Part shown: piece by piece, positions 1,239-23,457 of the stretch
How positions within the stretch are numbered: position 1 is the first letter of the stretch
Layout: each line of letters begins with the position of its first letter
Source of the DNA: Escherichia coli
Lineage (GTDB): Bacteria; Pseudomonadota; Gammaproteobacteria; Enterobacterales; Enterobacteriaceae
Assembly: GCF_044324875.1 (NCBI RefSeq)
Contig: NZ_CP172185.1
Strand: one strand, 5' to 3'
DNA: 64,000 bases
The notes under the pieces: model-generated
What the model saw: the letters and a program-made list of their open reading frames with translations, nothing else
Told to the model about the DNA's origin: nothing
Database searches by the model: none
Program-made: the position numbers and the translations under genes

Positions 1239-1263
1239 CCCTGCTATTTGCCTGATAAATCTC

Positions 1264-1296
1264 AAACCCGGTAAGCATTTAGCGCCGGGTTTTTTC
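1264..1296 (+). terminator. Rho-independent terminator after hrpA
   Basis: GC stem (cccgg...ccggg) followed by a T-run (ttttttcttt). Confidence 0.6.
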
Positions 1297-1525
1297 TTTA
1301 TGAATTCTGAAAAATAGCAAGGGCGGTACTATTTTACATAAGTTACATTCATACTCTGCCCATGGTAAACAGGACGTATTGCAATGAGTAGGCATGATAT
1401 TTTAATGAGATCGTATTATGAGCGAATAATAGAGCTTGATTGCGTCGGTCAGGCTTTAATCTCTTTCTATGAAAAACTTCCAGAGGAAATTTTATCAGAA
1501 AATAATGGATTGGATTAATAGTATG

Positions 1526-1861
1526 AAAAATGTAGACAATATTATCTGGCATGATGGTGTTTTAGTTGAAACAAGAATGGAATGTCACCACGCCGGGTAT
1601 AATTTTATATTGACGACAGAACTTTATGTTGATGAATTTACAGCCGGAAGGGAACGAAAAAGATTCGAGTTTACAGGAGTGGAACATTTATCGCAGGTTA
1701 TGGATATTGCTGAGCTTATAGATAACCAAAACGCAGGTAATATTAAAGATGCGACAATTGTTTATAAGGCAAAGAAGTATGAAATTTCACTTCATTTGTT
1801 TGGCGGTTTTTTAAGTTTTACATTTAAAACCATGCGAGTTGTTGACAATGAATTTGAGTAA
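1526..1861 (+). CDS. hypothetical small protein (about 111 aa from MKNVDNI; alternative start 1469), AT-rich
   Basis: ORF in a markedly AT-rich segment between hrpA and ydcF; its stop overlaps the start of the next ORF. Confidence 0.35.
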   Translation, partial: KNVDNIIWHDGVLVETRMECHHAGYNFILTTELYVDEFTAGRERKRFEFTGVEHLSQVMDIAELIDNQNAGNIKDATIVYKAKKYEISLHLFGGFLSFTFKTMRVVDNEFE

Positions 1862-2297
1862 TGCCAAATGCGACAAATTGTCTTTTTATGAAGAAAAAAT
1901 CCGCTGGCGAATGCGTCGGCAAATCTCGAATGCAGAGGCAATATTTTACGAGAATCAGGAAGAACACATTCAGCGCTTTTTAGGCAGATATACCTGCCGC
2001 AAACCGGTTCTTGTTTATTGGGAAAGTGAACAAAGATGGACATCTGTAAACGGTCTGGAAGTGATGAGTATGTTTGATGGGCATTGTCATCACATCTACC
2101 TTGATGATATCAATAAAAAAATACAAGCTGAATTACCTGAAGATAAAACATTAGGTTTCAAACGTCAATTGCAATTTTTCAGTTTAGGGGATGAGAAGAT
2201 TAGAATATGGGTGCCACAGGGGGAATTATATTTCGCATTAATGAATGTATTGCAGATGTTCCCCCTGAAGAAAATGGTTAATGACTGGACAAGGTAA
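1848..2297 (+). CDS. hypothetical protein (about 149 aa from MNLSNAKCDK), AT-rich
   Basis: ORF whose ATG overlaps the stop of the preceding ORF (translational coupling); no recognisable motif. Confidence 0.35.
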   Translation: MNLSNAKCDKLSFYEEKIRWRMRRQISNAEAIFYENQEEHIQRFLGRYTCRKPVLVYWESEQRWTSVNGLEVMSMFDGHCHHIYLDDINKKIQAELPEDKTLGFKRQLQFFSLGDEKIRIWVPQGELYFALMNVLQMFPLKKMVNDWTR

Positions 2298-2415
2298 TTT
2301 CAAATCACAGTAATGTCCATCGATTATACATGGTACGTAAACAGACTCGCACCGTTTTTGCAGAAGGTTAATGTGTGTCTATTGAGTGCAGTCTCATATA
2401 TGAAGGGGTATTGAC

Positions 2416-2793
2416 ATGGATGAATGTTTTATAAATATCACTCCGACTTCATTGTCTTTTAAAAACGCCGATCTGTCAGATTTAAGCTATAAAAATGCCA
2501 GGCTTGAACTTACCCTGATATGCCCGGCGATCAAGTCAGAAGTTAAGTTATCATTTGACTGGATACATTCATTTCGTGTTACTGACGAAGGTGATTTGTT
2601 AGGAATGTCAGGAATGCACGGTATTAACCAAACAGGTATCTATAGAGTAGTGAATTCCGCCTATTTTTCATGGTTTACTATGCAAAGTTGTGAAATTTAT
2701 AAAAATAATGTGATCGAGCATTATGTCATTGCCACGTCAAATGATGTTATTGATGTTTTATCAACAGTTTCTCCGCAAATACAGTATGACTAA
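2416..2793 (+). CDS. hypothetical protein (125 aa), AT-rich
   Basis: third same-strand ORF in the AT-rich islet; no recognisable motif. Confidence 0.35.
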   Translation: MDECFINITPTSLSFKNADLSDLSYKNARLELTLICPAIKSEVKLSFDWIHSFRVTDEGDLLGMSGMHGINQTGIYRVVNSAYFSWFTMQSCEIYKNNVIEHYVIATSNDVIDVLSTVSPQIQYD

Positions 2794-2908
2794 AACCAGT
2801 GTCTGGTTCGCGATGGCGAGGTAGAAAAAGCATCATCTTCCTTTCAGAGTGCTCCGCTTCTCATTATTATCTCACGCAGTATTCTTAAGGAAACGATAAG
2901 GAGGAACC

Positions 2909-3709
2909 ATGAACATTACCCCGTTTCCGACGCTTTCGCCGGCAACCATAGATGCCATAAATGTTATCGGTCAGTGGCTGGCGCAGGATGATTTCTCCGG
3001 TGAGATGCCGTATCAGGCCGATTGCGTGATCCTTGCAGGCAATGCGGTTATGCCAACTATCGATGCGGCATGCAAGATTGCCCGCGATCAGCAAATTCCT
3101 CTACTGATTAGTGGTGGTATCGGTCACTCGACAACTTTTTTGTATAGTGCCATCGCACAGCATCCGCACTACAACACTATCCGCACCACTGGCAGAGCAG
3201 AAGCTACCATCCTGGCGGATATCGCTCATCAGTACTGGCACATTCCGCATGAAAAAATCTGGATTGAAGACCAGTCAACAAACTGCGGTGAAAACGCACG
3301 CTTTAGCATCTCGCTATTGAATCAGGCCGTAGAACGAGTTCATACGGCTATCGTTGTTCAGGACCCCACAATGCAGCGGCGCACGATGGCGACGTTCCGC
3401 CGTATGACTGGGGACAATCCCGATGCACCACGCTGGTTAAGTTATCCCGGATTCGTTCCTCAGCTAGGAAACAACGCAGACAGTGTAATCTTTGTTAATC
3501 CGTTGCAAGGATTATGGCCGGTTGAGCGTTATCTCTCACTACTCACTGGCGAGCTGCCACGTTTACGCGATGATAGCGATGGCTACGGTCCACGCGGGCG
3601 AGATTTTATCGTTCACGTTGATTTTCCGGCAGAAGTCATCCAGGCATGGCAAACGCTGAAACACGATGCGGTGCTCATCGAGGCGATGGAAAGTCGCTCG
3701 TTACGTTAA
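2909..3709 (+). CDS. ydcF: DUF218-family protein YdcF
   Basis: 266-aa ORF recognised as YdcF; RBS aaggagg upstream. Confidence 0.9.
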
Positions 3710-3905
3710 AAATTGCCCGTTTGTTAACCATTTGTTTGCAAACGGGCATGACTCCTGACGTTTATTTCTGCCTTTTATTCCTTTTACACTTGTTTTTATG
3801 AAGCCCTTCACAGAATTGTCCTTTCACGATGCCGTCTCTATGATGATTGATGTTAATTAACAATGCATTTACCAATAACAAACATATAAATCACAGGAGT
3901 CGCCC

Positions 3906-5345
3906 ATGTCAGTACCCGTTCAACATCCTATGTATATCGATGGACAGTTTGTTACCTGGCGTGGAGACGCATGGATTGATGTGGTAAACCCTGCTACAGA
4001 GGCGGTCATTTCCCGCATTCCCGATGGTCAGGCCGAGGATGCCCGTAAGGCAATCGATGCAGCAGAACGTGCACAACCAGAATGGGAAGCGTTGCCTGCC
4101 ATTGAACGCGCCAGTTGGTTGCGCAAAATCTCCGCCGGGATCCGAGAACGCGCCAGTGAAATCAGTGCGCTGATTGTTGAAGAAGGGGGCAAGATCCAGC
4201 AGCTGGCTGAAGTCGAAGTGGCTTTTACTGCGGACTATATCGATTACATGGCGGAGTGGGCACGGCGTTATGAAGGCGAGATTATTCAAAGCGATCGTCC
4301 AGGAGAAAATATTCTTCTGTTTAAACGTGCGCTTGGCGTGACTACCGGCATTCTGCCGTGGAACTTCCCGTTCTTCCTCATTGCCCGCAAAATGGCTCCC
4401 GCTCTTTTGACCGGTAATACCATCGTCATTAAACCCAGTGAATTTACGCCAAACAATGCGATTGCTTTTGCCAAAATTGTCGATGAAATAGGCCTTCCAC
4501 GCGGTGTGTTTAACCTTGTGCTAGGGCGTGGTGAAACCGTTGGGCAAGAACTGGCGGGTAACCCAAAGGTCGCAATGGTCAGTATGACAGGCAGCGTCTC
4601 TGCAGGTGAAAAGATCATGGCGACTGCAGCAAAAAATATCACAAAAGTGTGTCTGGAATTGGGTGGTAAAGCACCAGCTATCGTAATGGACGATGCCGAT
4701 CTTGAACTGGCAGTCAAAGCCATCGTTGATTCACGCGTCATTAATAGTGGGCAAGTGTGTAACTGTGCAGAACGTGTTTATGTACAGAAAGGCATTTATG
4801 ATCAGTTCGTCAATCGGCTGGGTGAAGCGATGCAGGCGGTGCAATTTGGTAACCCCGCTGAACGCAACGACATTGCGATGGGGCCGTTGATTAACGCCTC
4901 GGCGCTGGAAAGGGTCGAGCAAAAAGTGGCGCGCGCAGTAGAAGAGGGGGCGAGAGTGGCGTTGGGGGGCAAGGCAGTAGAGGGGAAAGGATATTATTAT
5001 CCGCCGACATTGCTGCTGGATGTTCGCCAGGAAATGTCGATTATGCACGAGGAAACCTTTGGCCCGGTGCTGCCAGTGGTCGCATTTGACACGCTGGAAG
5101 AGGCTATCGCAATGGCTAATGACAGTGATTACGGCCTGACCTCATCAATCTATACCCAAAATTTGAACGTCGCGATGAAAGCCATTAAAGGGCTGAAGTT
5201 TGGTGAAACTTACATTAACCGTGAAAACTTCGAAGCTATGCAAGGCTTCCACGCCGGATGGCGTAAATCCGGTATTGGCGGCGCAGATGGTAAACATGGC
5301 TTGCATGAATACCTGCAGACCCAGGTGGTTTATTTACAGTCGTAA
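3906..5345 (+). CDS. aldA: lactaldehyde dehydrogenase
   Basis: 479-aa ORF recognised as AldA (aldehyde dehydrogenase family). Confidence 0.95.
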   Translation: MSVPVQHPMYIDGQFVTWRGDAWIDVVNPATEAVISRIPDGQAEDARKAIDAAERAQPEWEALPAIERASWLRKISAGIRERASEISALIVEEGGKIQQLAEVEVAFTADYIDYMAEWARRYEGEIIQSDRPGENILLFKRALGVTTGILPWNFPFFLIARKMAPALLTGNTIVIKPSEFTPNNAIAFAKIVDEIGLPRGVFNLVLGRGETVGQELAGNPKVAMVSMTGSVSAGEKIMATAAKNITKVCLELGGKAPAIVMDDADLELAVKAIVDSRVINSGQVCNCAERVYVQKGIYDQFVNRLGEAMQAVQFGNPAERNDIAMGPLINASALERVEQKVARAVEEGARVALGGKAVEGKGYYYPPTLLLDVRQEMSIMHEETFGPVLPVVAFDTLEEAIAMANDSDYGLTSSIYTQNLNVAMKAIKGLKFGETYINRENFEAMQGFHAGWRKSGIGGADGKHGLHEYLQTQVVYLQS

Positions 5346-5355
5346 TGAGTGAAAG

Positions 5356-5379
5356 AGGCGGAGGTTTTTCCCTCCGCCT
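5356..5379. terminator. bidirectional stem-loop terminator between convergent aldA and gapC
   Basis: perfect hairpin aggcggagg-tttttc-cctccgcct. Confidence 0.6.
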
Positions 5380-5386
5380 TTGCGCG

Positions 5387-6388
5387 TCAGAGTTTAGCGA
5401 ATTTTTCGAGGGTGCGAATAAGCTGCGTGACGAAGCCATATTCGTTATCGTACCAGGCGACCGTTTTCACCAGTTGTAAATCGCCCACGGCGGTAATTTC
5501 CGTTTGCGTGGCATCAAACACCGACCCGAAATGGCTGCCAATGATATCAGAAGAGACTATTTCTTCATCGGTATAACCAAATGACTCGTTATTGTTTGTC
5601 GCCTTTTTAAGCGCGTTGTTCACCTCTTCGGCAGTCACTTTTTTTCCAAGAATAGACACCAGTTCAGTCACCGAACCTGTTTTCACGGGTACGCGTTGCG
5701 CATGACCTTTCAGTTTGCCGCTCAGTTCCGGGATCACCAGACCAATGGCTTTTGCCGCACCTGTAGTGTGGGGAATGATATTTTCTGCCGCTGCACGTGA
5801 AGCGCGTAGATCTTTACCTCGCGGACCATCCACCAGTGACTGAGTGCCGGTATAGGCATGAATGGTCGTCATCGTGCCGACTTCTATTCCGAAACTGTCG
5901 TGCAAGGCTTTGGCCATCGGTGCAAGACAGTTAGTGGTGCATGACGCCACGGAAACAATGGTGTCGTTGCCATCCAGTGTGTCGTCATTGACGTTATAAA
6001 CGATGGTTTTCATTTCACCGGCAGGGGCGGAAATCAACACTTTCTTCGCACCAGCATCAAGATGCGCCTGCGATTTCTCGGCGGAGGTATAAAAGCCAGT
6101 ACATTCGACAATGATTTCTGCGCCTTTCGCTTTCCATGGAATATTTTTAGCCTCTTTTTCGGCGTAAACCGCGATACTTTTTCCATCAACGATAAGTGAA
6201 TCTTCCGTAAAATCAACGCGCCAGGGGAACGGACCATAGTTTGAATCATGTTTCAGCAGATAGGCGAGAATTTTTGGGGAAGTGAGATCATTAATAGCAA
6301 CAATGTCTATGTTGCTTTTGACTTCAAGTAATCGACGCAACACCAGTCGACCGATACGACCAAAACCGTTAATACCAACTTTACTCAT
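5387..6388 (-). CDS. gapC: glyceraldehyde-3-phosphate dehydrogenase GapC (intact)
   Basis: uninterrupted 333-aa ORF with the GAPDH N-terminal NAD-binding motif [10 protein letters not shown] and active-site region SCTTNCLAP. Confidence 0.9.
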
Positions 6389-6576
6389 GGTCTTCTCCTG
6401 TCAGGAACGTTCGGATGAAAATTGATCCTTTCCAGGCTTAGACCAGGATGGCGGGATGGGCAATCTACATTCTTGCCGTGAAACGTAACGTACTGAAAAC
6501 GGGTGAACAATATTTAATGAAATTTTAAGAAAAGCTCGTTATGTTAACGGAAAATTGTTTTAAAGCAGGAAATGTT

Positions 6577-7107
6577 ATGGAAAATAAATACTCAAGGTTA
6601 CAAATCAGCATTCACTGGCTGGTCTTTTTGCTGGTTATCGCAGCGTATTGCGCAATGGAGTTTCGTGGTTTCTTCCCACGTAGCGATCGGCCGCTCATCA
6701 ACATGATTCATGTTTCCTGTGGCATCACAATTCTCGTGCTGATGGTGATTCGTCTTTTGTTAAGGCTGAAATACCCAACCCCGCCGATTATACCTAAGCC
6801 AAAACCGATGATGACGGGACTGGCGCATTTGGGACATTTGGTGATCTATCTCCTGTTTATTGCGCTGCCAGTGATTGGTTTGGTGATGATGTATAACCGG
6901 GGCAACCCGTGGTTTGCGTTTGGTATGACGATGCCTTATGCATCAGAGGCCAATTTCGAACGGGTTGATAGCTTAAAGTCGTGGCATGAAACGCTGGCAA
7001 ATCTGGGATACTTTGTCATCGGGTTGCACGCTGCGGCTGCACTGGCACACCACTATTTCTGGAAGGACAACACACTTCTACGCATGATGCCGCGTAAACG
7101 TTCCTGA
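6577..7107 (+). CDS. cybB: cytochrome b561
   Basis: 176-aa membrane protein from MENKYS; ORF-track start at 6541 is an upstream extension. Confidence 0.9.
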   Translation: MENKYSRLQISIHWLVFLLVIAAYCAMEFRGFFPRSDRPLINMIHVSCGITILVLMVIRLLLRLKYPTPPIIPKPKPMMTGLAHLGHLVIYLLFIALPVIGLVMMYNRGNPWFAFGMTMPYASEANFERVDSLKSWHETLANLGYFVIGLHAAAALAHHYFWKDNTLLRMMPRKRS

Positions 7108-7391
7108 AGGATATTTAAAGAAAACGCCTGTACTAAAACCGACCCGTGGTACAGGCGAAGAATACGGGTCTACATCGGAAGCGCCTATTATATTTATTTG
7201 TATGACAAATAAAACCATAATCCTGGTCCATACGTCCATCTGGCTTATCTTTAATCAATTCACCCGATCTTTGATCTCATCAACGGTATCAAAATAAACC
7301 AGCGTATAACGTTCAAATCGAACATAAGATTCGATAGGTGATGCTGCCAACTTACTGATTTAGTGTATGATGGTGTTTTTGAGGTGCTCCA

Positions 7392-7667
7392 GTGGCTTCT
7401 GTTTCTATCAGCTGTCCCTCCTGTTCAGCTACTGACGGGGTGGTGCGTAACGGCAAAAGCACCGCCGGACATCAGCGCTATCTCTGCTCTCACTGCCGTA
7501 AAACATGGCAACTGCAGTTCACTTACACCGCTTCTCAACCCGGTACGCACCAGAAAATCATTGATATGGCCATGAATGGCGTTGGATGCCGGGCAACTGC
7601 CCGCATTATGGGCGTTGGCCTCAACACGATTTTACGTCACTTAAAAAACTCAGGCCGCAGTCGGTAA
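7392..7667 (+). CDS. insA: IS1 InsA
   Basis: 91-aa ORF recognised as IS1 InsA. Confidence 0.9.
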
Positions 7668-8089
7668 CCTCGCGCATACAGCCGGGCAGTGACGTCATCG
7701 TCTGCGCGGAAATGGACGAACAGTGGGGCTATGTCGGGGCTAAATCGCGCCAGCGCTGGCTGTTTTACGCGTATGACAGGCTCCGGAAGACGGTTGTTGC
7801 GCACGTATTCGGTGAACGCACTATGGCGACGCTGGGGCGTCTTATGAGCCTGCTGTCACCCTTTGACGTGGTGATATGGATGACGGATGGCTGGCCACTG
7901 TATGAATCCCGCCTGAAGGGAAAGCTGCACGTAATCAGCAAGCGATATACGCAGCGAATTGAGCGGCATAACCTGAATCTGAGGCAGCACCTGGCACGGC
8001 TGGGACGGAAGTCGCTGTCGTTCTCAAAATCGGTGGAGCTGCATGACAAAGTCATCGGGCATTATCTGAACATAAAACACTATCAATAA
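7586..8089 (+). CDS. insB: IS1 InsB' (expressed as InsAB' by -1 frameshift)
   Basis: 167-aa ORF overlapping insA in the -1 frame, as in IS1. Confidence 0.9.
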
Positions 8090-8128
8090 GTTGGAGTCAT
8101 TACCGATTCGATAAACCATGGAGGTTAT

Positions 8129-8302
8129 ATGAAAAAACTGGCACTCATCTTTGTTATAGGAGCGCTTGTTTCCTTTTATGCCGATGCCGGGCGCAAACCC
8201 TGTTCTGGTTCGAAAGGGGGGATCTCACACTGTACGGCAGGCGGCAAATTTGTCTGTAATGATGGTTCTATTAGTGCATCGAAAAAAACATGCACTAACT
8301 GA
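8129..8302 (+). CDS. ydcA: small secreted protein YdcA (57 aa)
   Basis: short ORF with signal peptide, translated by hand (below the ORF-track length cutoff); RBS ggagg upstream. Confidence 0.8.
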   Translation: MKKLALIFVIGALVSFYADAGRKPCSGSKGGISHCTAGGKFVCNDGSISASKKTCTN

Positions 8303-8374
8303 AGCGTAAAAAGGGGTGCCATGAGAAAATGAATCTGCTAGTCAGATGCGCGGGGAAAATCCCCGCGCTTGCCC

Positions 8375-8564
<190 letters not shown>

Positions 8565-8582
<18 letters not shown>

Positions 8583-8630
8583 TCGTTGGCCTCGGTTGAT
8601 AGAAATATCGGTCGGGGCCTTCGTCTTTCT
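8565..8630 (+). ncRNA. sokB: approximate position of SokB antisense RNA (placed by analogy with hok/sok loci)
   Basis: inferred from hok/sok architecture only; ends not determined from sequence. Confidence 0.25.
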
Positions 8631-8856
8631 GATTCCCGGTTAGCCTGAAAACAGAAAGTCTCAGGCACCCGTGAGCATCCTATGTGGTTTCCTTAGGGAC
8701 GAAAATAATCACCTGACGAAATTGCGTGCTGTTTTCCAGAATTTTTCGTCATTCGGTTTAGCCAGTTTAATCATTCGTTACTCTCTTCATTCCAATGGCA
8801 TTATTCTTCTCTGCCATAATTGTTGTAAAAATGTGACGCAAAGAGGTTTTTGGTCG

Positions 8857-8883
8857 TAAGAAATTACCGTCAAGTGCCGATGA
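8857..8883 (+). promoter_or_regulatory. sigma-28 (FliA) type promoter upstream of trg
   Basis: taagaaat-N11-gccgatga resembles the FliA consensus TAAAGTTT-N11-GCCGATAA, about 40 bp upstream of the trg ATG. Confidence 0.5.
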
Positions 8884-8922
8884 CTTTCTATCAGGAGTAA
8901 ACCTGGAAGAGAGTCAACGGTA

Positions 8923-10563
8923 ATGAATACAACTCCCTCACAGCGATTAGGTTTTTTGCATCACATCAGGCTGGTTCCGTTATTTGCCTGCATTCTTGGC
9001 GGTATCTTAGTTCTATTCGCATTAAGTTCAGCTCTGGCTGGCTATTTCCTCTGGCAGGCCGATCGCGATCAGCGTGATGTTACTGCGGAGATTGAGATTC
9101 GGACCGGGTTAGCGAACAGTTCAGATTTTTTGCGTTCAGCCCGGATCAATATGATTCAGGCCGGTGCTGCGAGTCGTATTGCGGAAATGGAAGCAATGAA
9201 GCGAAATATTGCGCAAGCCGAATCGGAGATTAAACAGTCGCAGCAAGGTTATCGTGCTTATCAGAATCGGTCGGTGAAAACACCTGCTGATGAAGCCCTC
9301 GACACTGAATTAAATCAACGCTTCCAGGCTTATATCACGGGTATGCAACCGATGTTGAAATATGCCAAAAATGGCATGTTTGAAGCGATTATCAATCATG
9401 AAAGTGAGCAGATCCGACCGCTGGATAATGCTTATACCGATATTTTGAGCAAAGCCGTTAAGATACGTAGCACCAGAGCCAACCAACTGGCGGAACTGGC
9501 CCATCAGCGCACCCGCCTGGGTGGGATGTTCATGATTGGCGCGTTTGTGCTTGCCCTGGTCATGACGCTGATAACATTTATGGTGCTACGTCGGATCGTC
9601 ATTCGTCCATTGCAACATGCCGCACAACGGATTGAAAAAATCGCCAGTGGCGATCTGACGATGAATGATGATCCGGCAGGTCGTAATGAAATCGGTCGCT
9701 TAAGTCGTCATTTACAGCAAATGCAGCATTCACTGGGGATGACAGTAGGGACCGTTCGACAGGGCGCGGAAGAGATTTATCGTGGCACCAGCGAAATTTC
9801 CGCTGGCAATGCGGACCTTTCATCTCGCACCGAAGAACAAGCGGCGGCAATTGAACAAACTGCCGCCAGCATGGAGCAACTCACTGCGACGGTGAAACAG
9901 AATACAGATAACGCGCATCATGCCAGCAAACTGGCGCAGGAGGCTTCTATTAAAGCCAGCGATGGCGGGCAGACGGTTTCCGGTGTAGTAAAAACGATGG
10001 GCGCTATCTCCACGAGTTCGAAGAAAATTTCCGAGATCACCGCCGTCATCAACAGTATTGCTTTCCAGACGAATATTCTGGCACTGAATGCTGCCGTTGA
10101 AGCCGCGCGAGCGGGTGAGCAAGGGCGTGGATTTGCCGTTGTCGCCAGCGAAGTACGGACACTCGCAAGCCGCAGCGCCCAGGCGGCGAAAGAGATTGAA
10201 GGCTTGATCAGTGAATCAGTCAGGTTAATTGACCTGGGGTCGGATGAGGTAGCAACGGCAGGGAAAACCATGAGCACTATTGTTGATGCCGTCGCGAGTG
10301 TCACACATATCATGCAGGAAATCGCCGCCGCCTCGGATGAACAAAGCAGAGGCATAACACAGGTTAGCCAGGCGATTTCTGAAATGGATAAGGTGACGCA
10401 ACAGAATGCTTCTCTGGTAGAAGAGGCCTCAGCGGCGGCGGTGTCCCTTGAAGAACAGGCGGCACGATTAACTGAGGCGGTGGACGTATTCCGTCTGAAC
10501 AAACATTCTGTGTCGGCCGAACCTCGCGGAGCGGGTGAACCAGTTAGATTCGCTACGGTGTGA
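8923..10563 (+). CDS. trg: methyl-accepting chemotaxis protein III (ribose/galactose)
   Basis: 546-aa ORF with two TM segments, HAMP and conserved MCP signalling domain. Confidence 0.95.
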
Positions 10564-13308: not shown

Positions 13309-14964
13309 ATGGATCGTAGACGATTTATTAAAGGTTCAATGGCTATGGCCGCCGTGTGCGGTACCAGCGGCATTGCTTCTCTTTTTTCTCAGGCGGCATT
13401 CGCGGCAGATTCTGATATTGCCGACGGGCAAACCCAGCGTTTTGACTTCTCCATTCTACAGTCAATGGCGCACGACCTAGCGCAAACAGCGTGGCGTGGT
13501 GCGCCGCGTCCGTTACCTGACACTCTGGCGACAATGACGCCGCAGGCTTATAACAGTATTCAATACGACGCCGAAAAATCGCTCTGGCATAACGTTGAGA
13601 ACCGTCAACTGGACGCTCAGTTCTTCCATATGGGAATGGGTTTCCGTCGCCGCGTTCGTATGTTTTCTGTTGATCCCGCAACACATCTGGCGCGTGAAAT
13701 TCACTTTCGCCCGGAGTTGTTCAAATACAACGATGCGGGTGTTGATACCAAACAATTAGAAGGGCAAAGCGATCTCGGCTTTGCCGGTTTTCGCGTGTTT
13801 AAAGCCCCCGAACTGGCGCGTCGTGATGTAGTATCATTCCTCGGTGCGAGTTATTTCCGCGCCGTTGATGACACATATCAATATGGTTTGTCGGCTCGCG
13901 GCCTGGCGATCGACACTTACACCGACAGTAAAGAAGAGTTCCCCGACTTTACCGCCTTCTGGTTTGATACGGTAAAACCGGGGGCAACTACCTTTACCGT
14001 TTATGCGTTGCTCGATAGCGCCAGTATTACTGGTGCCTATAAGTTCACTATCCATTGTGAGAAAAGTCAGGTGATTATGGATGTGGAAAATCACCTGTAT
14101 GCGCGCAAAGACATTAAACAGCTGGGCATTGCGCCGATGACCAGCATGTTCAGCTGCGGCACTAATGAACGTCGGATGTGCGACACCATTCATCCGCAAA
14201 TCCATGACTCTGATCGTCTGTCCATGTGGCGGGGCAACGGCGAGTGGATTTGCCGTCCGCTGAATAATCCGCAAAAATTGCAGTTCAATGCTTACACCGA
14301 CAACAACCCGAAAGGGTTTGGTTTATTGCAACTGGATCGTGATTTCTCCCATTATCAGGACATTATGGGCTGGTATAACAAACGCCCAAGTCTGTGGGTG
14401 GAACCGCGTAACAAGTGGGGTAAGGGCACCATCGGCCTGATGGAAATCCCAACAACGGGCGAAACGCTGGATAACATTGTCTGCTTCTGGCAGCCAGAAA
14501 AAGCTGTAAAAGCGGGTGATGAGTTTGCATTCCAGTATCGTCTGTACTGGAGTGCGCAACCGCCTGTTCATTGCCCATTAGCGCGCGTTATGGCGACGCG
14601 TACCGGCATGGGCGGTTTCCCGGAAGGTTGGGCGCCAGGTGAACACTATCCCGAAAAGTGGGCGCGTCGTTTTGCCGTCGATTTCGTTGGTGGTGATCTG
14701 AAAGCTGCCGCACCAAAAGGCATTGAGCCGGTGATTACGCTTTCCAGTGGGGAAGCGAAGCAAATCGAAATTCTCTATATTGAACCCATTGAAGGTTATC
14801 GTATTCAGTTTGACTGGTATCCGACTTCGGACTCCACTGATCCGGTCGATATGCGGATGTATCTGCGTTGTCAGGGCGACGCTATCAGTGAAACATGGCT
14901 GTATCAGTATTTCCCACCAGCGCCGGATAAACGTCAGTATGTTGACGACCGCGTGATGAGTTAG
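13309..14964 (+). CDS. opgD: periplasmic glucan biosynthesis protein D (Tat-secreted)
   Basis: 551-aa ORF with twin-arginine signal [10 protein letters not shown]. Confidence 0.95.
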
Positions 14965-14976
14965 TCGTTTTTTCTT

Positions 14977-15000
14977 CGGCACCTTCTTCGGGAGGTGCCG
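14977..15000 (+). terminator. stem-loop after opgD
   Basis: inverted repeat cggcacc...ggtgccg. Confidence 0.4.
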
Positions 15001-15103
15001 TCTGGTTAAACACGATCCCGCTCGCATTTTTCCCTAAGTTAAATGAGTAATCTGATGGTGTGTATTTCAGATACACCTTGTCAGCCACTAACAGGGAGTG
15101 CGT

Positions 15104-15328
15104 ATGTTTCCAGAATACCGAGATTTAATATCCCGTCTGAAAAACGAAAATCCTCGCTTTATGTCCTTGTTCGATAAACACAATAAACTTGATCATGAAA
15201 TTGCCAGAAAGGAAGGTTCCGACGGTCGAGGGTACAATGCGGAAGTGGTCCGCATGAAAAAACAAAAGCTACAGTTAAAAGATGAGATGCTCAAAATCCT
15301 GCAGCAGGAGAGCGTCAAAGAGGTGTAA
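15104..15328 (+). CDS. ydcH: DUF465-family small protein YdcH
   Basis: 74-aa ORF from MFPEYRDL. Confidence 0.8.
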   Translation: MFPEYRDLISRLKNENPRFMSLFDKHNKLDHEIARKEGSDGRGYNAEVVRMKKQKLQLKDEMLKILQQESVKEV

Positions 15329-15337
15329 ACTTTCCTA

Positions 15338-15363
15338 AGCCGCCAGCCAGGCGGCTTTTTTAA
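15338..15363 (+). terminator. Rho-independent terminator after ydcH
   Basis: hairpin agccgccagccaggcggct followed by tttttt. Confidence 0.7.
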
Positions 15364-15390
15364 CAACTGCATGGAGTGACTGGAGATAAG

Positions 15391-15930
15391 ATGACTGAAA
15401 CGATAAAAGTAAGCGAATCACTTGAATTACATGCTGTTGCAGAAAATCACGTCACACCTCTTTATCAGTTAATCTGTAAAAATAAAACCTGGTTACAGCA
15501 GTCGCTAAACTGGCCGCAGTTTGTTCAAATTGAAGAGGACACACGAAAAACGGTGCAGGGCAATGTAATGTTGCATCAACGCGGCTATGCCAAAATGTTC
15601 ATGATTTTCAAAGAAGATGAACTTATCGGCGTTATCTCGTTTAATCGTATTGAACCACTGAATAAAACCGCTGAAATCGGCTACTGGCTGGACGAATCTC
15701 ATCAGGGGGAGGGGATCATTTCTCAGGCGCTGCAGGCATTGATTCATCATTATGCTCAGTCTGGTGAACTTAGACGCTTCGTGATCAAATGTCGGGTGGA
15801 CAATGCGCAAAGCAACCAGGTCGCTTTGCGCAATGGTTTTATCCTTGAAGGTTGCCTGAAACAGGCTGAGTTTCTGAATGATGCCTATGATGATGTGAAC
15901 TTATACGCGCGTATTATCGATTCACAATAA
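15391..15930 (+). CDS. rimL: ribosomal protein L7/L12 serine acetyltransferase
   Basis: 179-aa GNAT ORF from [10 protein letters not shown]. Confidence 0.9.
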
Positions 15931-16902
15931 CCCTGCCAGCGGCGTTCGCGTAATGCGCTCTTCGCCGTTAATGACTTTTGGACCACGGACATGAACCGTG
16001 TCGCCATCAAAGGCTTCAACGACGGCGTGGTCGGTTAACTCCACATGGTTTTCAATTATCACCGCACCTGTAATACGGCTCTCACCTTGTATTACAACGT
16101 GCTCGTCGAGCAGAATCGGTCCGCCACGTACCACGGCATTTCCGCCAATCAAGACATGATGTTTTAACACACAATTACCTTCCACAATGGCATATTCCGC
16201 TACCTGCGAACTGTAATGAATTGTCGGAATGGCATCTTCTTCTATGCCAGCTTTCACCTGCGCGTGACCGTAGACTTTAGCACAATCGCATAGCCAGACG
16301 TTGTTCTCTTCATTACCTTCAACGCTGGCAAAATCAAAAACTTCGGCGCGATGTTCAATAAAAGCATACCGGACGACGGCATCGCCATAAATTTGTGCCT
16401 GGTGAACAATACGCGAGGCGCTAACCCTTGCGCGATCATAAATTTGTAGCAGGAGTTGATGGTCGGAGGTTAAGCCTTGCGCGGCGACGATCATAGAATG
16501 TTGATCAATTAAGGCGTGACCAAATATTCTACATTGACCGCAAACTAATGCGTCACGAATGGTGACGCTGTCACTTATATGTGCACCCTGACTGATTTCA
16601 CTATTATCGATCCAGACGTTATCCGTTGCGTAAACCTCTCCCCAAAGGACGCTGGTGCCGGTGATACGCGTATTACCGGAAATCACCGTTCCGCCGAACG
16701 CAATAGCATTCTGATCGTAAATCCAGCAATTTCCTTCCTGCGCTAACACCGTTTCGCGATCGATCCAGCCGCCAGCGGTTCCTGCTATCACATCGTTAAA
16801 ATCGCTCATGGCGATAATTTGCCGTAATAACACACTTTTTTTAGTGCCATCATCCTGATAACTAAAGGCTCGCTGTTCTTCACTTAGACGATATTTGCGC
16901 AT
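15922..16902 (-). CDS. ydcK: hexapeptide-repeat protein YdcK
   Basis: 326-aa ORF with left-handed beta-helix hexapeptide repeats. Confidence 0.9.
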
Positions 16903-17025
16903 AGCGTTTTCCCACAGGTGACTTACTATAACCGTAGCAAATTCTGCGGCTCTGGCTATGCTCGAGAAAATTCCATAAAATGCATTTCAAATATACTTTA
17001 TAAATTAAACAAAATGAGTAAGAAG

Positions 17026-18018
17026 ATGCAGAGCGATAAAGTGCTCAATTTGCCGGCAGGCTACTTTGGTATTGTGTTGGGGACGATAGGGATGGGATTT
17101 GCCTGGCGCTATGCCAGCCAGGTTTGGCAGGTCAGCCACTGGTTAGGGGATGGGCTAGTGATTCTGGCGATGATCATCTGGGGATTATTGACTAGCGCAT
17201 TTATTACCCGACTCATACGCTTTCCGCATAGCGTGCTGGCGGAAGTGCGTCATCCAGTGATGAGCAGTTTTGTGAGTTTGTTTCCGGCAACGACGATGCT
17301 GGTGGCGATTGGTTTTGTTCCGTGGTTTCGCCCACTGGCGGTGTGCCTGTTCAGTTTTGGCGTCGTGGTGCAACTGGCTTATGCCGCCTGGCAAACTGCG
17401 GGATTATGGCGCGGATCTCATCCTGAAGAAGCTACCACGCCTGGACTGTATCTGCCGACAGTTGCCAACAACTTTATCAGCGCAATGGCCTGTGGTGCAT
17501 TGGGCTACACCGACGCTGGTCTGGTGTTTTTAGGCGCAGGCGTTTTCTCATGGTTAAGCCTGGAACCGGTGATCTTGCAGCGTCTGCGCAGTTCGGGAGA
17601 ATTACCCACGGCGCTGCGGACATCACTCGGCATTCAGCTCGCTCCTGCGCTGGTGGCCTGTAGTGCCTGGCTGAGCGTCAACGGCGGCGAGGGTGACACG
17701 CTGGCGAAAATGCTTTTCGGTTATGGGCTGCTGCAACTGCTGTTTATGCTACGTCTGATGCCATGGTATCTCTCCCAGCCATTTAATGCTTCATTCTGGA
17801 GTTTCTCGTTCGGCGTATCTGCACTGGCAACCACCGGTTTGCATCTGGGGAGTGGCAGCGATAATGGATTTTTCCATACGCTGGCGGTGCCGCTGTTTAT
17901 CTTTACCAATTTTATAATTGCAATACTGCTCATCCGTACTTTCGCGCTTCTGATGCAGGGGAAATTGTTAATCAGAACCGAGCGCGCCGTTTTAATGAAA
18001 GCTGAGGACAAAGAATGA
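17026..18018 (+). CDS. tehA: tellurite resistance / C4-dicarboxylate transporter family protein TehA
   Basis: 330-aa polytopic membrane ORF from MQSDKVLN. Confidence 0.9.
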
Positions 18019-18618
18019 TCATTCGTGACGAAAACTATTTTACTGATAAGTATGAATTAACCCGCACACACTCTGAAGTACTGGAAGCGGTGAAAGTGGT
18101 TAAACCCGGTAAAACGCTGGATCTGGGCTGTGGCAATGGTCGTAATAGTCTTTACCTGGCAGCCAATGGTTATGAAGTTGACGCATGGGATAAAAATGCC
18201 ATGAGTATCGCCAACGTCGAGCGTATTAAATCCATTGAAAATCTGGATAATTTACACACCCGGGTCGTTGATCTGAATAACCTTACGTTTGATGGGCAAT
18301 ACGATTTTATTCTTTCGACTGTGGTGCTGATGTTCCTTGAGGCTAAAACCATCCCAGGGCTGATTGCCAATATGCAACGTTGCACTAAACCTGGCGGTTA
18401 CAACCTGATTGTGGCGGCGATGGATACCGCTGATTATCCATGTACCGTCGTGTACCGTCGGCTTCCCGTTTGCCTTCAAAGAGGGAGAATTACGTCGATA
18501 TTACGAAGGCTGGGAGATGGTGAAATACAATGAAGACGTCGGCGAGCTGCACCGCACCGACGCCAACGGTAATCGTATTAAACTGCGTTTCGCCACGATG
18601 CTGGCACGTAAAAAATAA
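18015..18618 (+). pseudogene. tehB: tehB (SAM-dependent tellurite methyltransferase) disrupted by a frameshift
   Basis: ORFs 18015-18533 and 18409-18618 join into one continuous methyltransferase if one copy of the tandem 10-bp repeat at 18441-18460 is removed. Confidence 0.85.
18441..18460 (+). repeat. perfect 10-bp tandem duplication tgtaccgtcg x2 inside tehB
   Basis: read directly from the sequence. Confidence 0.9.
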
Positions 18619-18920
18619 CCTGGTAAGAACAAGGCGCGTGAAAATTCCCCACGCTGAGATGGTCTACTGTTCTTCTTTTCGGTAAGCATAATTTTTATCG
18701 AATGGATGTGAAATTAATCACAGTAGTCGAAGTTTTTTAGCAGCTTAACTTACTGAAATTTAACTACTGATGATTGACTTAGCCCCTTTTTCGGCATTGA
18801 CTATGTCGTCTGAAAAGGGGCTGAAAAATTTATTTTCACCAACACTTTTTTTGCCACAACACGAAGCGGCGCTTTTTGCTATAACTTAGAAAGTAATATA
18901 ATCATCTCAGGAAACTATTC

Positions 18921-19589
18921 ATGCGTACCACATCAATTGCGAAAGTTGCAGCTTTATGCGGCTTGTTGGCTCTGTCTGGTTGTGCCTCTAAAATCACCCA
19001 GCCAGATAAATATTCTGGTTTTTTAAACAATTACTCTGATTTAAAAGAAACAACCTCAGCAACAGGTAAACCTGTTTTACGTTGGGTAGACCCGAGTTTT
19101 GATCAAAGCAAATATGACAGCATCGTCTGGAACCCAGTCACTTATTATCCGGTACCGAAACCATCTACCCAGGTAGGGCAGAAAGTTCTGGATAAAATTT
19201 TGAGTTATACCAACACCGAAATGAAAGAAGCGATTGCGCAGCGTAAACCACTGGTTACCACCGCTGGGCCGCGTAGTCTGATTTTCCGTGGGGCCATTAC
19301 CGGTGTTGATACCAGCAAAGAAGGGCTGCAATTCTATGAAGTGGTTCCTGTCGCATTAGTGGTCGCGGGGACGCAAATGGCGACGGGCCACCGTACCATG
19401 GATACTCGCCTGTATTTTGAAGGTGAGCTGATTGATGCAGCTACTAATAAACCGGTTATCAAAGTCGTTCGTCAGGGCGAAGGTAAAGACCTGAATAACG
19501 AAAGTACGCCAATGGCTTTCGAAAATATTAAACAAGTTATTGATGACATGGCGACCGATGCCACCATGTTTGACGTTAACAAAAAGTAA
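18921..19589 (+). CDS. ydcL: lipoprotein YdcL
   Basis: 222-aa ORF with lipobox LSGC. Confidence 0.9.
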   Translation: MRTTSIAKVAALCGLLALSGCASKITQPDKYSGFLNNYSDLKETTSATGKPVLRWVDPSFDQSKYDSIVWNPVTYYPVPKPSTQVGQKVLDKILSYTNTEMKEAIAQRKPLVTTAGPRSLIFRGAITGVDTSKEGLQFYEVVPVALVVAGTQMATGHRTMDTRLYFEGELIDAATNKPVIKVVRQGEGKDLNNESTPMAFENIKQVIDDMATDATMFDVNKK

Positions 19590-19622
19590 TTCCAGCCGCG
19601 CCATCGTAAGATGCGCTTTTTA

Positions 19623-20795
19623 TTATCGGTTTCTGTGAGCGATTAAATTCAACACCACGTAACAAACGCCTCCGGCAATTAATCCCCAGAACGCAGAACC
19701 AATCCCGACCAGCGTCAATCCACTTGCCGTTACCAGAAATGCCACCACCGCCGCGTCGCGCTCACGCTCATTATGCAGCGCCTGATACAAACTGCCGCCA
19801 ATGGTACTCAACAGCGCCAGACCTGCCAGCATCTGGATCCAACTTACGGGCAGGGCAGCCATCATCCCGGTAATGGCACTACCAAAAAGACCTGCGAGCA
19901 AATAAAAAATGCCTGCAACGGCAGCTGCCAGCCAACGTTGATCTTTATCCGGATGCGCTTCCGGGCTTTGACAAATAGCCGCGGTGAGTGCCGCAATACC
20001 GACGGAATAAACGCCGAAAGGGGAAAAAACAAGCGCCAGCAATCCAGTAAACACAATCAACGGCGAAACAGGAGCCGAATACCCGGCTGCTTTCATTGCT
20101 GCGATACCTGGAGCGTTTTGCGATGCCATCGTCACCAGAAAAAGGGGGAGTGCAACGCTCAGACTGTGAGCAAACGAAAAATCAGGGGTAATATAAGTGG
20201 GGAGAACGGGTTTAAAGACAACATCATTTGTGACAACGTCACCTTGCGCCATAACGATCACGATCCCAATAATCATCGCGGCAATTACCGCATAGCGCGG
20301 CGCAACGGCCCTGGTTGCCAGCCATACCAGCAACATACTGCCACACAACGTAAATTGACCATCCAGACTGGCAAACGCCTGTAAACCAAAGCGTAATAAA
20401 ATCCCGGCAAGCATTGCTGCCGCAAGCGAGTGCGGAATAATGCGCATCAGACGAGCAAAGAGTCCCGTTATGCCGCAGAGGACTATTAACGCGTTGGTGA
20501 CAATAAAAACGCCGATGGCTTCGTTAAGTGTTAGTCCCTGTAATCCGGTGACCAACAAAGCCGCGCCAGGCGTTGACCATGCGGTGAGAACAGGTACGCG
20601 ATACCATAATGTCAGAGTCAGCGTACTGACGCCCATTGCCAGCCCCAGCGCCGTCATCCAGCCAGAGATTTGTGCAGTGGTGGCTCCGGCGACAATCGCT
20701 GCTTGCCAGATTATTGCCGCTGAACTGGCGTAGCCAATTAATACCGCCAGAAACCCCGCCAGTAGCGTGGGTGGAGGAATAGAAAACAGACGCAT
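19623..20795 (-). CDS. ydcO: benzoate-transporter-family membrane protein YdcO
   Basis: polytopic membrane ORF; start taken at MRLFSIPPP because the longer ORF would overlap divergent ydcN. Confidence 0.85.
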   Translation of the reverse strand: MRLFSIPPPTLLAGFLAVLIGYASSAAIIWQAAIVAGATTAQISGWMTALGLAMGVSTLTLTLWYRVPVLTAWSTPGAALLVTGLQGLTLNEAIGVFIVTNALIVLCGITGLFARLMRIIPHSLAAAMLAGILLRFGLQAFASLDGQFTLCGSMLLVWLATRAVAPRYAVIAAMIIGIVIVMAQGDVVTNDVVFKPVLPTYITPDFSFAHSLSVALPLFLVTMASQNAPGIAAMKAAGYSAPVSPLIVFTGLLALVFSPFGVYSVGIAALTAAICQSPEAHPDKDQRWLAAAVAGIFYLLAGLFGSAITGMMAALPVSWIQMLAGLALLSTIGGSLYQALHNERERDAAVVAFLVTASGLTLVGIGSAFWGLIAGGVCYVVLNLIAHRNR

Positions 20796-20886
20796 AGTCA
20801 CCTCGTGCGTTATAGCGTACAGGTACCGTAGCATTTGTCCGTTATAACGCACAAGTGATAAACTTCCGTTTTGCCGGAGGAGTCGC

Positions 20887-21423
20887 ATGGAAAATCTCGC
20901 TCGCTTTTTATCCACCACACTTAAACAACTACGCCAGCAGCGCGGCTGGAGTCTTTCGCGACTGGCCGAAGCGACAGGCGTTTCTAAAGCGATGTTAGGG
21001 CAGATTGAGCGTAATGAGTCCAGCCCGACGGTCGCGACATTATGGAAAATTGCCACCGGGTTGAATGTGCCATTTTCGACATTTATTTCTCCGCCGCAGT
21101 CCGCTACGCCTTCAGTTTATGATCCGCAACAGCAGGCGATGGTGATCACTTCGCTGTTTCCTTATGATCCACAACTCTGCTTTGAACACTTCTCGATTCA
21201 GATGGCACCTGGTGCAATAAGTGAATCGACGCCCCATGAGAAGGGAGTAATCGAACATGTTGTCGTCATTGATGGGCAACTTGATCTGTGCGTTGATGGT
21301 GAATGGCAGAGCCTTAATTGTGGAGAAGGCGCTCGATTTGCTGCAGACGTTACGCATGTCTATCGTAATGGTGGGGAGCAAATCGTACATTTTCATTCCC
21401 TCATCCATTACCCACGCAGTTAA
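20887..21423 (+). CDS. ydcN: XRE-family HTH / cupin transcriptional regulator YdcN
   Basis: 178-aa ORF with N-terminal HTH and C-terminal cupin. Confidence 0.9.
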   Translation: MENLARFLSTTLKQLRQQRGWSLSRLAEATGVSKAMLGQIERNESSPTVATLWKIATGLNVPFSTFISPPQSATPSVYDPQQQAMVITSLFPYDPQLCFEHFSIQMAPGAISESTPHEKGVIEHVVVIDGQLDLCVDGEWQSLNCGEGARFAADVTHVYRNGGEQIVHFHSLIHYPRS

Positions 21424-21495
21424 GCGGGAAAACTATTTCGCAACGTCGCGCTTGTGGCTAAAATAGCCGCCATTTTTCAGCTACTGGATAAGAAT

Positions 21496-23457
21496 GTGAC
21501 CGTATCTTCTCATCGACTTGAACTGTTAAGCCCGGCACGCGATGCCGCCATTGCCCGCGAAGCTATTTTGCACGGTGCCGATGCTGTTTATATCGGCGGC
21601 CCTGGTTTTGGTGCCCGTCATAATGCCAGTAATAGCCTGAAAGATATTGCCGAACTGGTGCCGTTTGCCCATCGTTATGGTGCAAAAATTTTCGTCACGC
21701 TTAACACCATTTTGCATGATGATGAGCTGGAACCTGCGCAACGGCTGATTACCGACCTCTACCAGACCGGCGTCGATGCGCTGATTGTTCAGGATATGGG
21801 GATTCTGGAACTTGATATTCCGCCGATTGAACTGCACGCCAGTACGCAGTGCGATATTCGCACAGTAGAAAAAGCGAAGTTCCTCTCTGATGTTGGCTTT
21901 ACGCAGATTGTGCTGGCGCGAGAGCTGAATCTTGAGCAGATCCGCGCGATTCACCAGGCCACGGACGCGACCATTGAATTCTTTATTCATGGTGCATTGT
22001 GCGTGGCCTATTCTGGTCAGTGCTACATTTCTCATGCGCAAACAGGGCGTAGCGCCAACCGTGGCGATTGCTCGCAGGCATGCCGTTTGCCATACACATT
22101 GAAAGACGATCAGGGGCGGGTGGTTTCTTATGAAAAACATCTGCTGTCGATGAAAGATAACGATCAGACTGCCAACCTTGGCGCGCTGATTGATGCTGGC
22201 GTGCGCTCCTTCAAGATTGAAGGGCGTTACAAAGATATGAGCTACGTGAAGAATATCACCGCGCATTATCGCCAAATGCTGGATGCCATTATTGAAGAAC
22301 GTGGCGATCTGGCGCGTGCTTCATCAGGTCGTACTGAACATTTCTTTGTTCCATCGACGGAAAAGACTTTCCACCGTGGTAGCACAGATTATTTTGTGAA
22401 TGCCCGTAAAGGGGATATCGGCGCGTTCGATTCGCCGAAATTTATCGGCCTGCCGGTGGGTGAAGTATTGAAAGTGGCGAAAGATCATCTTGATGTTGCC
22501 GTCACCGAGCCACTGGCAAATGGCGATGGCCTGAACGTGATGATTAAACGTGAAGTAGTCGGTTTTCGTGCCAATACGGTAGAAAAAACCGGAGAAAATC
22601 AGTACCGCGTCTGGCCAAATGAGATGCCTGCGGATTTGCATAAAATTCGTCCGCATCATCCGCTTAATCGTAATCTGGACCATAACTGGCAGCAGGCGTT
22701 GACCAAAACATCCAGCGAACGTCGCGTAGCGGTAGACATTGAACTGGGCGGATGGCAGGAACAACTGATTCTGACCCTGACCAGTGAAGAGGGCGTCAGC
22801 GTCACGCATACGCTGGATGGACAATTCGACGAAGCTAATAACGCCGAAAAAGCGCTTAATAACCTGAAAGATGGTCTGGCTAAGCTGGGGCAAACCATCT
22901 ATTACGCCCGCGATGTGCAAATTAACCTGCCTGGTGCGCTGTTTGTACCGAACAGTCTGTTAAATCAGTTCCGCCGTGAGGCCGCCGAAATGCTGGATGC
23001 TGCGCGTCTTGCCAGTTATCAGCGCGGCAGTCGTAAACCGGTTGCTGATCCTGCGCCGGTTTATCCGCAAACGCATCTGAGTTTCCTCGCGAACGTTTAC
23101 AACCAGAAAGCGCGTGAATTTTATCATCGCTATGGTGTGCAGCTGATTGACGCGGCGTATGAGGCACATGAAGAGAAGGGCGAAGTCCCGGTGATGATCA
23201 CCAAGCATTGTCTGCGCTTTGCCTTTAATCTGTGCCCGAAACAGGCGAAAGGCAATATCAAAAGCTGGAAGGCGACGCCAATGCAACTGGTTAATGGCGA
23301 TGAAGTGTTAACGCTGAAATTTGATTGCCGTCCGTGTGAGATGCACGTCATCGGCAAAATTAAAAATCACATTCTGAAAATGCCGTTACCGGGAAGCGTA
23401 GTGGCATCCGTAAGTCCGGATGATCTGCTGAAAACATTGCCGAAGCGAAAAGGGTAA
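21496..23457 (+). CDS. rlhA: U32-family peptidase-like protein YdcP/RlhA (23S rRNA hydroxylation)
   Basis: peptidase U32 family ORF; GTG start at 21496 assumed (653 aa); ORF track begins at 21454. Confidence 0.85.
   Translation: MTVSSHRLELLSPARDAAIAREAILHGADAVYIGGPGFGARHNASNSLKDIAELVPFAHRYGAKIFVTLNTILHDDELEPAQRLITDLYQTGVDALIVQDMGILELDIPPIELHASTQCDIRTVEKAKFLSDVGFTQIVLARELNLEQIRAIHQATDATIEFFIHGALCVAYSGQCYISHAQTGRSANRGDCSQACRLPYTLKDDQGRVVSYEKHLLSMKDNDQTANLGALIDAGVRSFKIEGRYKDMSYVKNITAHYRQMLDAIIEERGDLARASSGRTEHFFVPSTEKTFHRGSTDYFVNARKGDIGAFDSPKFIGLPVGEVLKVAKDHLDVAVTEPLANGDGLNVMIKREVVGFRANTVEKTGENQYRVWPNEMPADLHKIRPHHPLNRNLDHNWQQALTKTSSERRVAVDIELGGWQEQLILTLTSEEGVSVTHTLDGQFDEANNAEKALNNLKDGLAKLGQTIYYARDVQINLPGALFVPNSLLNQFRREAAEMLDAARLASYQRGSRKPVADPAPVYPQTHLSFLANVYNQKAREFYHRYGVQLIDAAYEAHEEKGEVPVMITKHCLRFAFNLCPKQAKGNIKSWKATPMQLVNGDEVLTLKFDCRPCEMHVIGKIKNHILKMPLPGSVVASVSPDDLLKTLPKRKG

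Follow-up and report, generated by a model that had tools for sequence, protein, structure and literature searches.

The ydcL-ydcO junction

How did two convergent genes of Escherichia coli, ydcL and ydcO, come to be only 33 bp apart in one strain and separated by a complete insertion sequence in another? The question is raised by a stretch of 64,000 nucleotides from E. coli (NCBI RefSeq assembly GCF_044324875.1, contig NZ_CP172185.1), referred to here in its full length as the window. An earlier note on this DNA had described the two genes as convergent with 33 bp between them, which the coordinates of the open reading frames and the sequence itself (19590-19622) bear out, and had suggested that this may be an uninterrupted ancestral junction. 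Very probably the spacer is a never-occupied allele of a polymorphic insertion site of IS609, an element of the IS200/IS605 family, and has its length of 33 bp through a private 1-bp deletion. The evidence for this reading consists of the element boundaries, the absence of a target duplication, the TTAT rule at the insertion sites, the frequencies of both states in the population and an empty junction in outgroup species. The features of the junction are as follows.

18921-19589, + strand: ydcL coding sequence, DUF3313 lipoprotein, 222 aa (ORF list; Pfam DUF3313, E 5.7e-63)
19590-19622, no strand: spacer between the stop codons of ydcL and ydcO, 33 bp (sequence)
19598-19616, + strand: ydcL terminator-like hairpin, GCGCCATC-GTAA-GATG(G)CGC, with one G of the 3' arm absent in the window (RNA folds)
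19617-19623, + strand: T-run of the terminator, TTTTTAT, whose last four bases, TTAT (19620-19623), are the target motif of IS609 (the TAM in TnpB terms)
19623-20795, - strand: ydcO coding sequence, BenE-family transporter, 390 aa from the K-12-equivalent start (ORF list; Pfam BenE, E 1.9e-161)

The stop codon of ydcL, TAA, occupies 19587-19589, and that of ydcO, also TAA, is the reverse complement of 19623-19625. The frame at 18921-19589 is annotated as ydcL in the RefSeq records of both E. coli 042 and K-12. A blastn search with the K-12 IS609 against the whole 64-kb window returned no match, which excludes a displaced or partial copy, and the claim that no IS609-type gene lies between ydcL and ydcO stands; within the spacer, no residual IS609 footprint is present. 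An Rfam scan of 19200-20000 (E ≤ 1) found no known RNA family, and a scan of 19300-19900 for promoter and terminator consensus sequences found no promoter, its sole call (19815-19794, - strand) being located inside ydcO and at chance level.

IS609 at the same site in K-12

In K-12 MG1655 (NC_000913) the annotated gene order is ydcL, IS609 (1503161-1504908, 1748 bp) and ydcO. Two genes lie within the element: yncK, a pseudogene of an IS200-type tnpA on the - strand, and insQ (b1432; ydcM in older nomenclature), which is annotated as a 'putative RNA-guided DNA endonuclease'. The statement of the earlier note that K-12 has a transposase gene, ydcM/insQ, between the two genes was therefore right as to the presence of IS609 with insQ, but insQ is a TnpB-type nuclease gene, while the transposase gene tnpA is a pseudogene. 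IS609 is single-copy in K-12 and was immobile in mutation-accumulation lines (PMC5009759).

Alignment of K-12 with the window across ydcL-ydcO broke exactly at 19623/19624, with IS609 filling the gap on the K-12 side. By local blastn, positions 1-5161 of the K-12 locus correspond to 14453-19623 of the window (97.4%) and positions 6910-10001 to 19624-22715 (96.7%), and the only K-12 segment left without alignment, 5162-6909, is the annotated IS609 to the base. K-12 does not share the 33-bp junction of the window, as the 1748-bp element is found in its place. Two further features can be defined from this comparison.

19623/19624, no strand: insertion point of IS609 in K-12 and in 3,250 complete genomes (break in the K-12 alignment; BLAST split at query 724/725; identical to the annotated IS609 ends)
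19624-19639, + strand: the 16 bases abutting the right end of IS609, TATCGGTTTCTGTCAG in K-12 and TATCGGTTTCTGTGAG in the window (junction comparison)

The flanks in K-12 read …GCGCTTTTTAT/CCGGTGCGCC…(IS609)…GGAGGATGTCAA/TATCGGTTTCTG…, and the window reads …GCGCTTTTTAT/TATCGGTTTCTG…. Joining the K-12 flanks yields the empty junction exactly, with no base lost and no target-site duplication. A 3-bp duplication of TAT, which is found on both sides of the element in K-12, was considered and rejected, since the empty site already reads TATTAT. The joined state also exists in other genomes: a synthetic 300-mer of 'K-12 minus IS609' (150 bp of left flank and 150 bp of right flank), searched in 5,426 complete genomes, matched strain EcN_Sk perfectly (100% identity) and O157:H7, O55:H7 and E2348/69 at 99.7%.

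The insertion point falls between the first and second + strand bases of the ydcO stop codon, and the stop codon used by ydcO in K-12 is a TGA within the right end of IS609, formed from its TCAA terminus. By splitting the stop codon the insertion made the YdcO of K-12 one residue, a tyrosine, longer, so that the protein ends in …ADRNRY in K-12 and in …AHRNR in the window. Overall, both sequences represent the same chromosomal site, with collinear flanks of 96.7-97.4% identity and a window sequence equal to that left after removal of the annotated element. They differ in that the window lacks the element, has a ydcO ending in …NR, carries a 1-bp deletion in the spacer and has one mismatch in the 16 bases by the insertion point.

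Spacer length and the terminator-like hairpin

The spacer consists mostly of a terminator-like hairpin, GCGCCATC-GTAA-GATGGCGC, followed by TTTTTAT. The usual spacer at the empty site is 34 bp long, as in 042 and in every top match listed from the search of 5,426 complete genomes. E. coli 042 is the complete genome closest to the window, with 99.8% identity over 7.6 kb, and over this distance only four changes separate the two: tehB of the window has a 10-bp tandem duplication, two positions are SNPs, and a single G is missing from the window at 19613, within the 3' arm of the terminator stem that follows ydcL. A query of 91 bp spanning the window junction found no exact match in the 5,426 genomes among the matches listed, the top ones all having the extra G. 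Judged by these alignments, the length of 33 bp is an apparent private 1-bp deletion in the terminator stem of the window, which may be a real mutation or a sequencing error.

The deletion at 19613 weakens the predicted hairpin from -16.2 kcal/mol in 042 (z -3.5) to -9.1 kcal/mol in the window (z -0.75), with K-12 at -16.3 kcal/mol (z -3.1), and the window version is not called by a simple scan for the terminator consensus. In 042 and K-12 the hairpin resembles an intrinsic (Rho-independent) terminator, since the ydcL stop codon is directly followed by a GC-rich stem of 8 bp with a loop of 4 nt and then by five Ts, whereas the stem in the window is weakened by the 1-bp deletion; the terminator function is a predicted one.

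IS609 as a member of the IS200/IS605 family

The intact copy of IS609 in O157:H7 encodes a Y1 (HUH) transposase TnpA (Pfam Y1_Tnp, E 1.8e-41), while the K-12 copy of tnpA (yncK) has an internal stop. InsQ matches the Pfam families OrfB_IS605 (E 8e-35), Cas12f1-like_TNB (E 2e-23) and HTH_OrfB_IS605, and it aligns to the structures of the ISDra2 TnpB (E 1.9e-54) with acidic residues aligned in three RuvC-like motifs (GLDAG, VIEDL and NADVN). Both ends of the element carry subterminal hairpins, CCCCATCC-TTCA-GGGCGGGG at the left end and CCACGTCC-TTCA-GGGCGTGG at the right end, and the right end terminates in TCAA. Five independent sites were compared (ydcL-ydcO, yedK, a DUF3251 gene, a TetR gene next to ytfB, and gltX-yfeD). 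All five have TTAT directly 5' of the left end (four times as TTTAT and once as CTTAT), and their right flanks are mutually unrelated. The Y1 TnpA, the TnpB, the subterminal hairpins, the absence of a duplication and the TTAT rule place IS609 in the IS200/IS605 family.

Members of this family target single-stranded DNA, in which their left end comes to lie 3' of a tetra- or pentanucleotide specific to the element; no duplication results, and excision reseals the donor joint, with the lagging-strand template being preferred (PMC5027513). The donor joint, consisting of the TAM and the right-end flank, is in turn the target of TnpB (10.1101/2023.03.14.532601). The ydcL-ydcO site compares well with the donor joints or vacant sites of IS608 (TTAC), ISDra2 (TTGAT) and ISGst2 of G. 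stearothermophilus (TTTAT), in which a tetra- or pentanucleotide likewise lies 5' of the left end without duplication and the vacant site is composed of TAM and right-end flank, and its TTTAT context equals the TAM reported for GstTnpB2. It differs from those joints in being a natural site that was probably never occupied, rather than an experimentally excised one, and it is a putative substrate of IS609 TnpA and InsQ.

On this basis, IS609 would have been pasted as a single-stranded circle by the Y1 transposase TnpA between the equivalents of 19623 and 19624 in a K-12-like ancestor, without duplication, and the 042-like lineage of the window would never have acquired it. We infer the single-strand 'peel and paste' route and the preference for the lagging-strand template. 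By replichore geometry, the strand of K-12 that bears TTAT (+, at 1.50 Mb) would be the lagging-strand template, consistent with the bias of the family.

A variant of the left end was observed in the first 95 bases of IS609 (L090-L092, copies at ydcL-ydcO), where the outer inverted repeat around the hairpin is changed from GCGCC to GTGCC and from GGCGC to GGTGC. Both changes would give G-T pairs in the folded single strand.

Distribution of occupied and empty sites

Both states of the site are common in E. coli. With a 3,148-bp query from K-12 (700 bp, IS609 and 700 bp) and a coverage of at least 80%, the occupied state was found in 3,250 of 5,426 complete genomes (~60%). The uninterrupted segment of the window (2,001 bp, coverage again at least 80%) identified the empty state in 2,138 of the same genomes, and in genomes below this threshold the match to the 2,001-bp segment splits at query 724/725, which is 19623/19624 of the window. 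IS609 is present somewhere in the genome in 5,015 of the 5,426. Named strains with an empty site include 042, E2348/69, O157:H7, O55:H7 and MS6198, and those with an occupied site include K-12 derivatives, O103 and O111:H8. Judged by a handful of named strains and their usual phylogroup assignments, the site is presumably occupied in A/B1-type and empty in B2/D/E-type strains, and the gain of IS609 looks to be placed in the A/B1-type part of the E. coli tree.

Outgroups were surveyed with YdcL in one genome per GTDB species, which gave 80 loci. Three other Escherichia species (L009, L010 and L011), only 86-89% identical to E. coli in DNA (4 kb upstream), have convergent ydcL and ydcO genes with an uninterrupted 34-bp spacer, and no InsQ match was found outside E. 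coli among the 80 species loci. As the empty junction is shared by these three species and by E. coli strains, the vacant state predates the insertion of IS609.

Other members of the genus show different arrangements. In Escherichia albertii NBRC 107761 (L012, 4667-4853) rlhA (ydcP) directly follows ydcL, and ydcO and sutR are absent save for a few bases resembling the 3' end of ydcO. Escherichia sp. MOD1-EC7003 (L008, 4705-4750) has a 46-bp IS609-like relic at the same TTAT 3' of the ydcL terminator, in which the start of the left end is fused to the hairpin arm and end of the right end (…GGATGCCAA). Beyond the relic, what is left of ydcO runs directly into the 3' part of sutR, the greater share of ydcO and the 5' portion of sutR having been deleted.

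Divergence of IS609 copies and a possible role of InsQ

The copies of IS609 at ydcL-ydcO differ by 2.1-2.3%, compared to 0.4-1.3% for their flanks (700 bp on each side), in the five occupied alleles analysed; between O103 and PK-F-10122, for example, there are 41 differences in 1748 positions of the element and 6 in 1400 positions of the flanks. An element more divergent than its flanks points to an accelerated decay of the element, to gene conversion among its copies or to a renewed insertion. Together with the relic in MOD1-EC7003, this excess hints at a site history more complicated than one insertion. Lesions in tnpA also differ among the occupied strains: the K-12 gene (L001, 5219-5650) has an internal stop, that of O103 a stop together with a 1-bp deletion, and those of UTAK-12, PK-F-10122 and T28R a stop together with a 5-bp deletion. 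insQ, on the other hand, has an open frame in 11 of 11 copies examined, a small sample, with a pN/pS of 0.2-0.3. Read from these sequences, an open insQ next to a lesioned tnpA would be compatible with retained TnpB function.

A copy at another site, yedK in E. coli O91 RM7190 (L002, 401-2143), shares its tnpA lesion, the 5-bp deletion and the stop, with some of the ydcL-ydcO copies, to which it is 99.6-99.8% identical. With this defect being shared, a tnpA-defective element would have been mobilised in trans or homogenised by conversion.

According to the donor-joint model of TnpB systems, the guide RNA comes from the tnpB 3' end together with the right end of the element and continues into the flank, and the nuclease recognises the TAM and this flank, which together make up the vacant site (10.1101/2023.03.14.532601). 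By analogy, the TAM of K-12 InsQ would be TTAT and its guide-matching sequence TATCGGTTTCTGTCAG, and InsQ/TnpB of K-12 with a guide RNA derived from the right end would recognise exactly the TTAT and flank of a vacant site. TATCGGTTTCTGTCAG and the window sequence TATCGGTTTCTGTGAG are identical at 15 of 16 positions, the mismatch being at position 14. Over the insQ 3' end and the IS609 right end in K-12 (L001, 6793-6919) the fold z-score is -2.3, and matches to Rfam were sub-threshold only, namely HgcC (22 bits), sot0042 (15 bits) and RAGATH-18 (25 bits). HgcC and sot0042 are families whose members coincide with the 3'-terminal portions of IS605-type orfB genes. For the third family, RAGATH-18-derived RNAs are reported to adjoin IS607 TnpBs (PMC11061315). 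These matches, although well under the gathering scores, are consistent with a putative guide-RNA scaffold. In the literature on IS609, and on InsQ with TnpB, we found no functional study of the TAM or the nuclease activity of this element; its single and immobile state in K-12 was the one point that we found addressed directly.

Perhaps the TTAT at ydcL-ydcO is a homing site, at which InsQ/TnpB with a flank-reading guide RNA cuts vacant alleles and recombination restores IS609, a conjecture that we regard as quite unlikely. If true, it would explain why 60% of E. coli keep an element with a dead transposase but with insQ under purifying selection, and it would likewise account for the divergence of the element in excess of its flanks and for the relic that a different Escherichia lineage has at the same TTAT. 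In that case the window, whose allele mismatches the guide at position 14, would show a vacant allele that had survived in nature.

Alternative explanations

Excision in the IS200/IS605 family is scarless, and for this reason the sequence of the junction by itself fits a site that was never occupied as well as one that was occupied and then excised; the word 'ancestral' therefore depends on the distribution among strains and species and not on the junction sequence. The lineage of the window could once have had IS609 and lost it by TnpA-catalysed excision that restored the pre-insertion sequence. Such excision is precise in this family (PMC5027513; 10.1101/2023.03.14.532601), an intact tnpA exists in some E. 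coli, e.g. in the O157:H7 copy in the TetR gene next to ytfB, and IS609 is found somewhere in 5,015 of the 5,426 genomes. The 64-kb window, however, has no IS609 anywhere, the empty junction is common to three other Escherichia species and to diverse lineages of E. coli, and the flanks of the window differ by ~3% from the occupied alleles, as would be expected of a separate lineage. TnpB, if it acts as in the published model, would moreover work against a permanent loss (10.1101/2023.03.14.532601). Parsimony and the IS609-free window make prior occupation in this lineage unlikely, and a secondary loss is accordingly judged very improbable. A collapse of the element during assembly, with IS609 being present in the real genome, deserves next to no credence: two small indels relative to 042 (the 10-bp tehB duplication and the 1-bp spacer deletion) could cast some doubt on the assembly, but 2,138 complete genomes show this uninterrupted junction too, with 042 as the nearest relative among them, the join is base-perfect, and there is no second IS609 in the 64-kb window that could drive a collapse.

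A different type of alternative concerns the occupied alleles, which might not reflect a single event if IS609 entered this TTAT repeatedly or spread by recombination after TnpB had cut empty alleles. The IS609-like relic at the same TTAT in MOD1-EC7003, the divergence of the copies beyond that of their flanks, the variation of tnpA lesions between strains and the open insQ in 11 of 11 copies (pN/pS 0.2-0.3) would all agree with such a recurrent or homing site. One old insertion followed by independent decay of tnpA and relaxed constraint nevertheless explains the same data, and the comparison took in five occupied alleles only. In addition, IS609 of K-12 did not move in mutation-accumulation lines (PMC5009759), and the activity of InsQ is putative. 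We consider recurrence improbable, and repeated insertion, conversion or homing leaves the reading of the window as a never-occupied allele unchanged.

Deeper history of the junction

The interpretation of the spacer as ancestral depends on the timescale. In 66 of the 80 species loci an EamA-family transporter gene (- strand) and an AraC-family regulator gene (+ strand), together ~2 kb, lie between ydcL and ydcO. Carriers include Citrobacter, Enterobacter, Klebsiella (e.g. Klebsiella pneumoniae ATCC 13883, L064, 4716-6662), Raoultella, Kluyvera, Leclercia and others. Both genes are absent in Escherichia, in one Salmonella subspecies locus, in Atlantibacter and in a few other loci, and neither has a homologue in the window. 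These 66 loci speak against the short junction as the original state of the whole family, and that possibility was rejected. Since the EamA and AraC genes occupy this position in most other Enterobacteriaceae, the tight junction is in turn a derived state over a deeper timescale. The 'uninterrupted ancestral junction' of the earlier note is thus supported relative to the IS609 event, by the K-12 alignment and the outgroups, but its canonical spacer is 34 bp rather than 33 bp, and it does not extend to that deeper timescale.

Significance and neighbouring observations

The presence or absence of IS609 at ydcL-ydcO is an ordinary polymorphism of an insertion sequence that is already annotated and known. 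It is visible in any alignment of K-12 with, for instance, 042, O157:H7 or E2348/69 and matters little by itself. Nevertheless, the window provides the exact pre-insertion sequence of the only IS609 of K-12, identifies the C-terminus of K-12 YdcO (…NRY) as an artefact created by the insertion, and defines TTAT as the target of IS609 and its presumed TAM. It also offers a natural substrate of TAM and target with which to test whether the E. coli TnpB, InsQ, is an active RNA-guided nuclease.

Two differences from 042 were noticed in the surroundings of the junction. The alignment of the window with 042 ends at ~23526, just after rlhA, where 042 has a copy of the IS3-like element IS1397 (L088, 7661-8002). 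No open reading frame of at least 100 aa was found in the window between 23457 and 24202, and the window appears to be without the IS1397 insertion of 042. Upstream of ydcL, tehB (18015-18618) contains a 10-bp tandem duplication, TGTACCGTCG, at 18441-18450 compared to both E. coli 042 and K-12. The duplication shifts the reading frame and splits the gene into the open reading frames 18015-18533 and 18409-18618, so that this tellurite methyltransferase gene looks inactivated.
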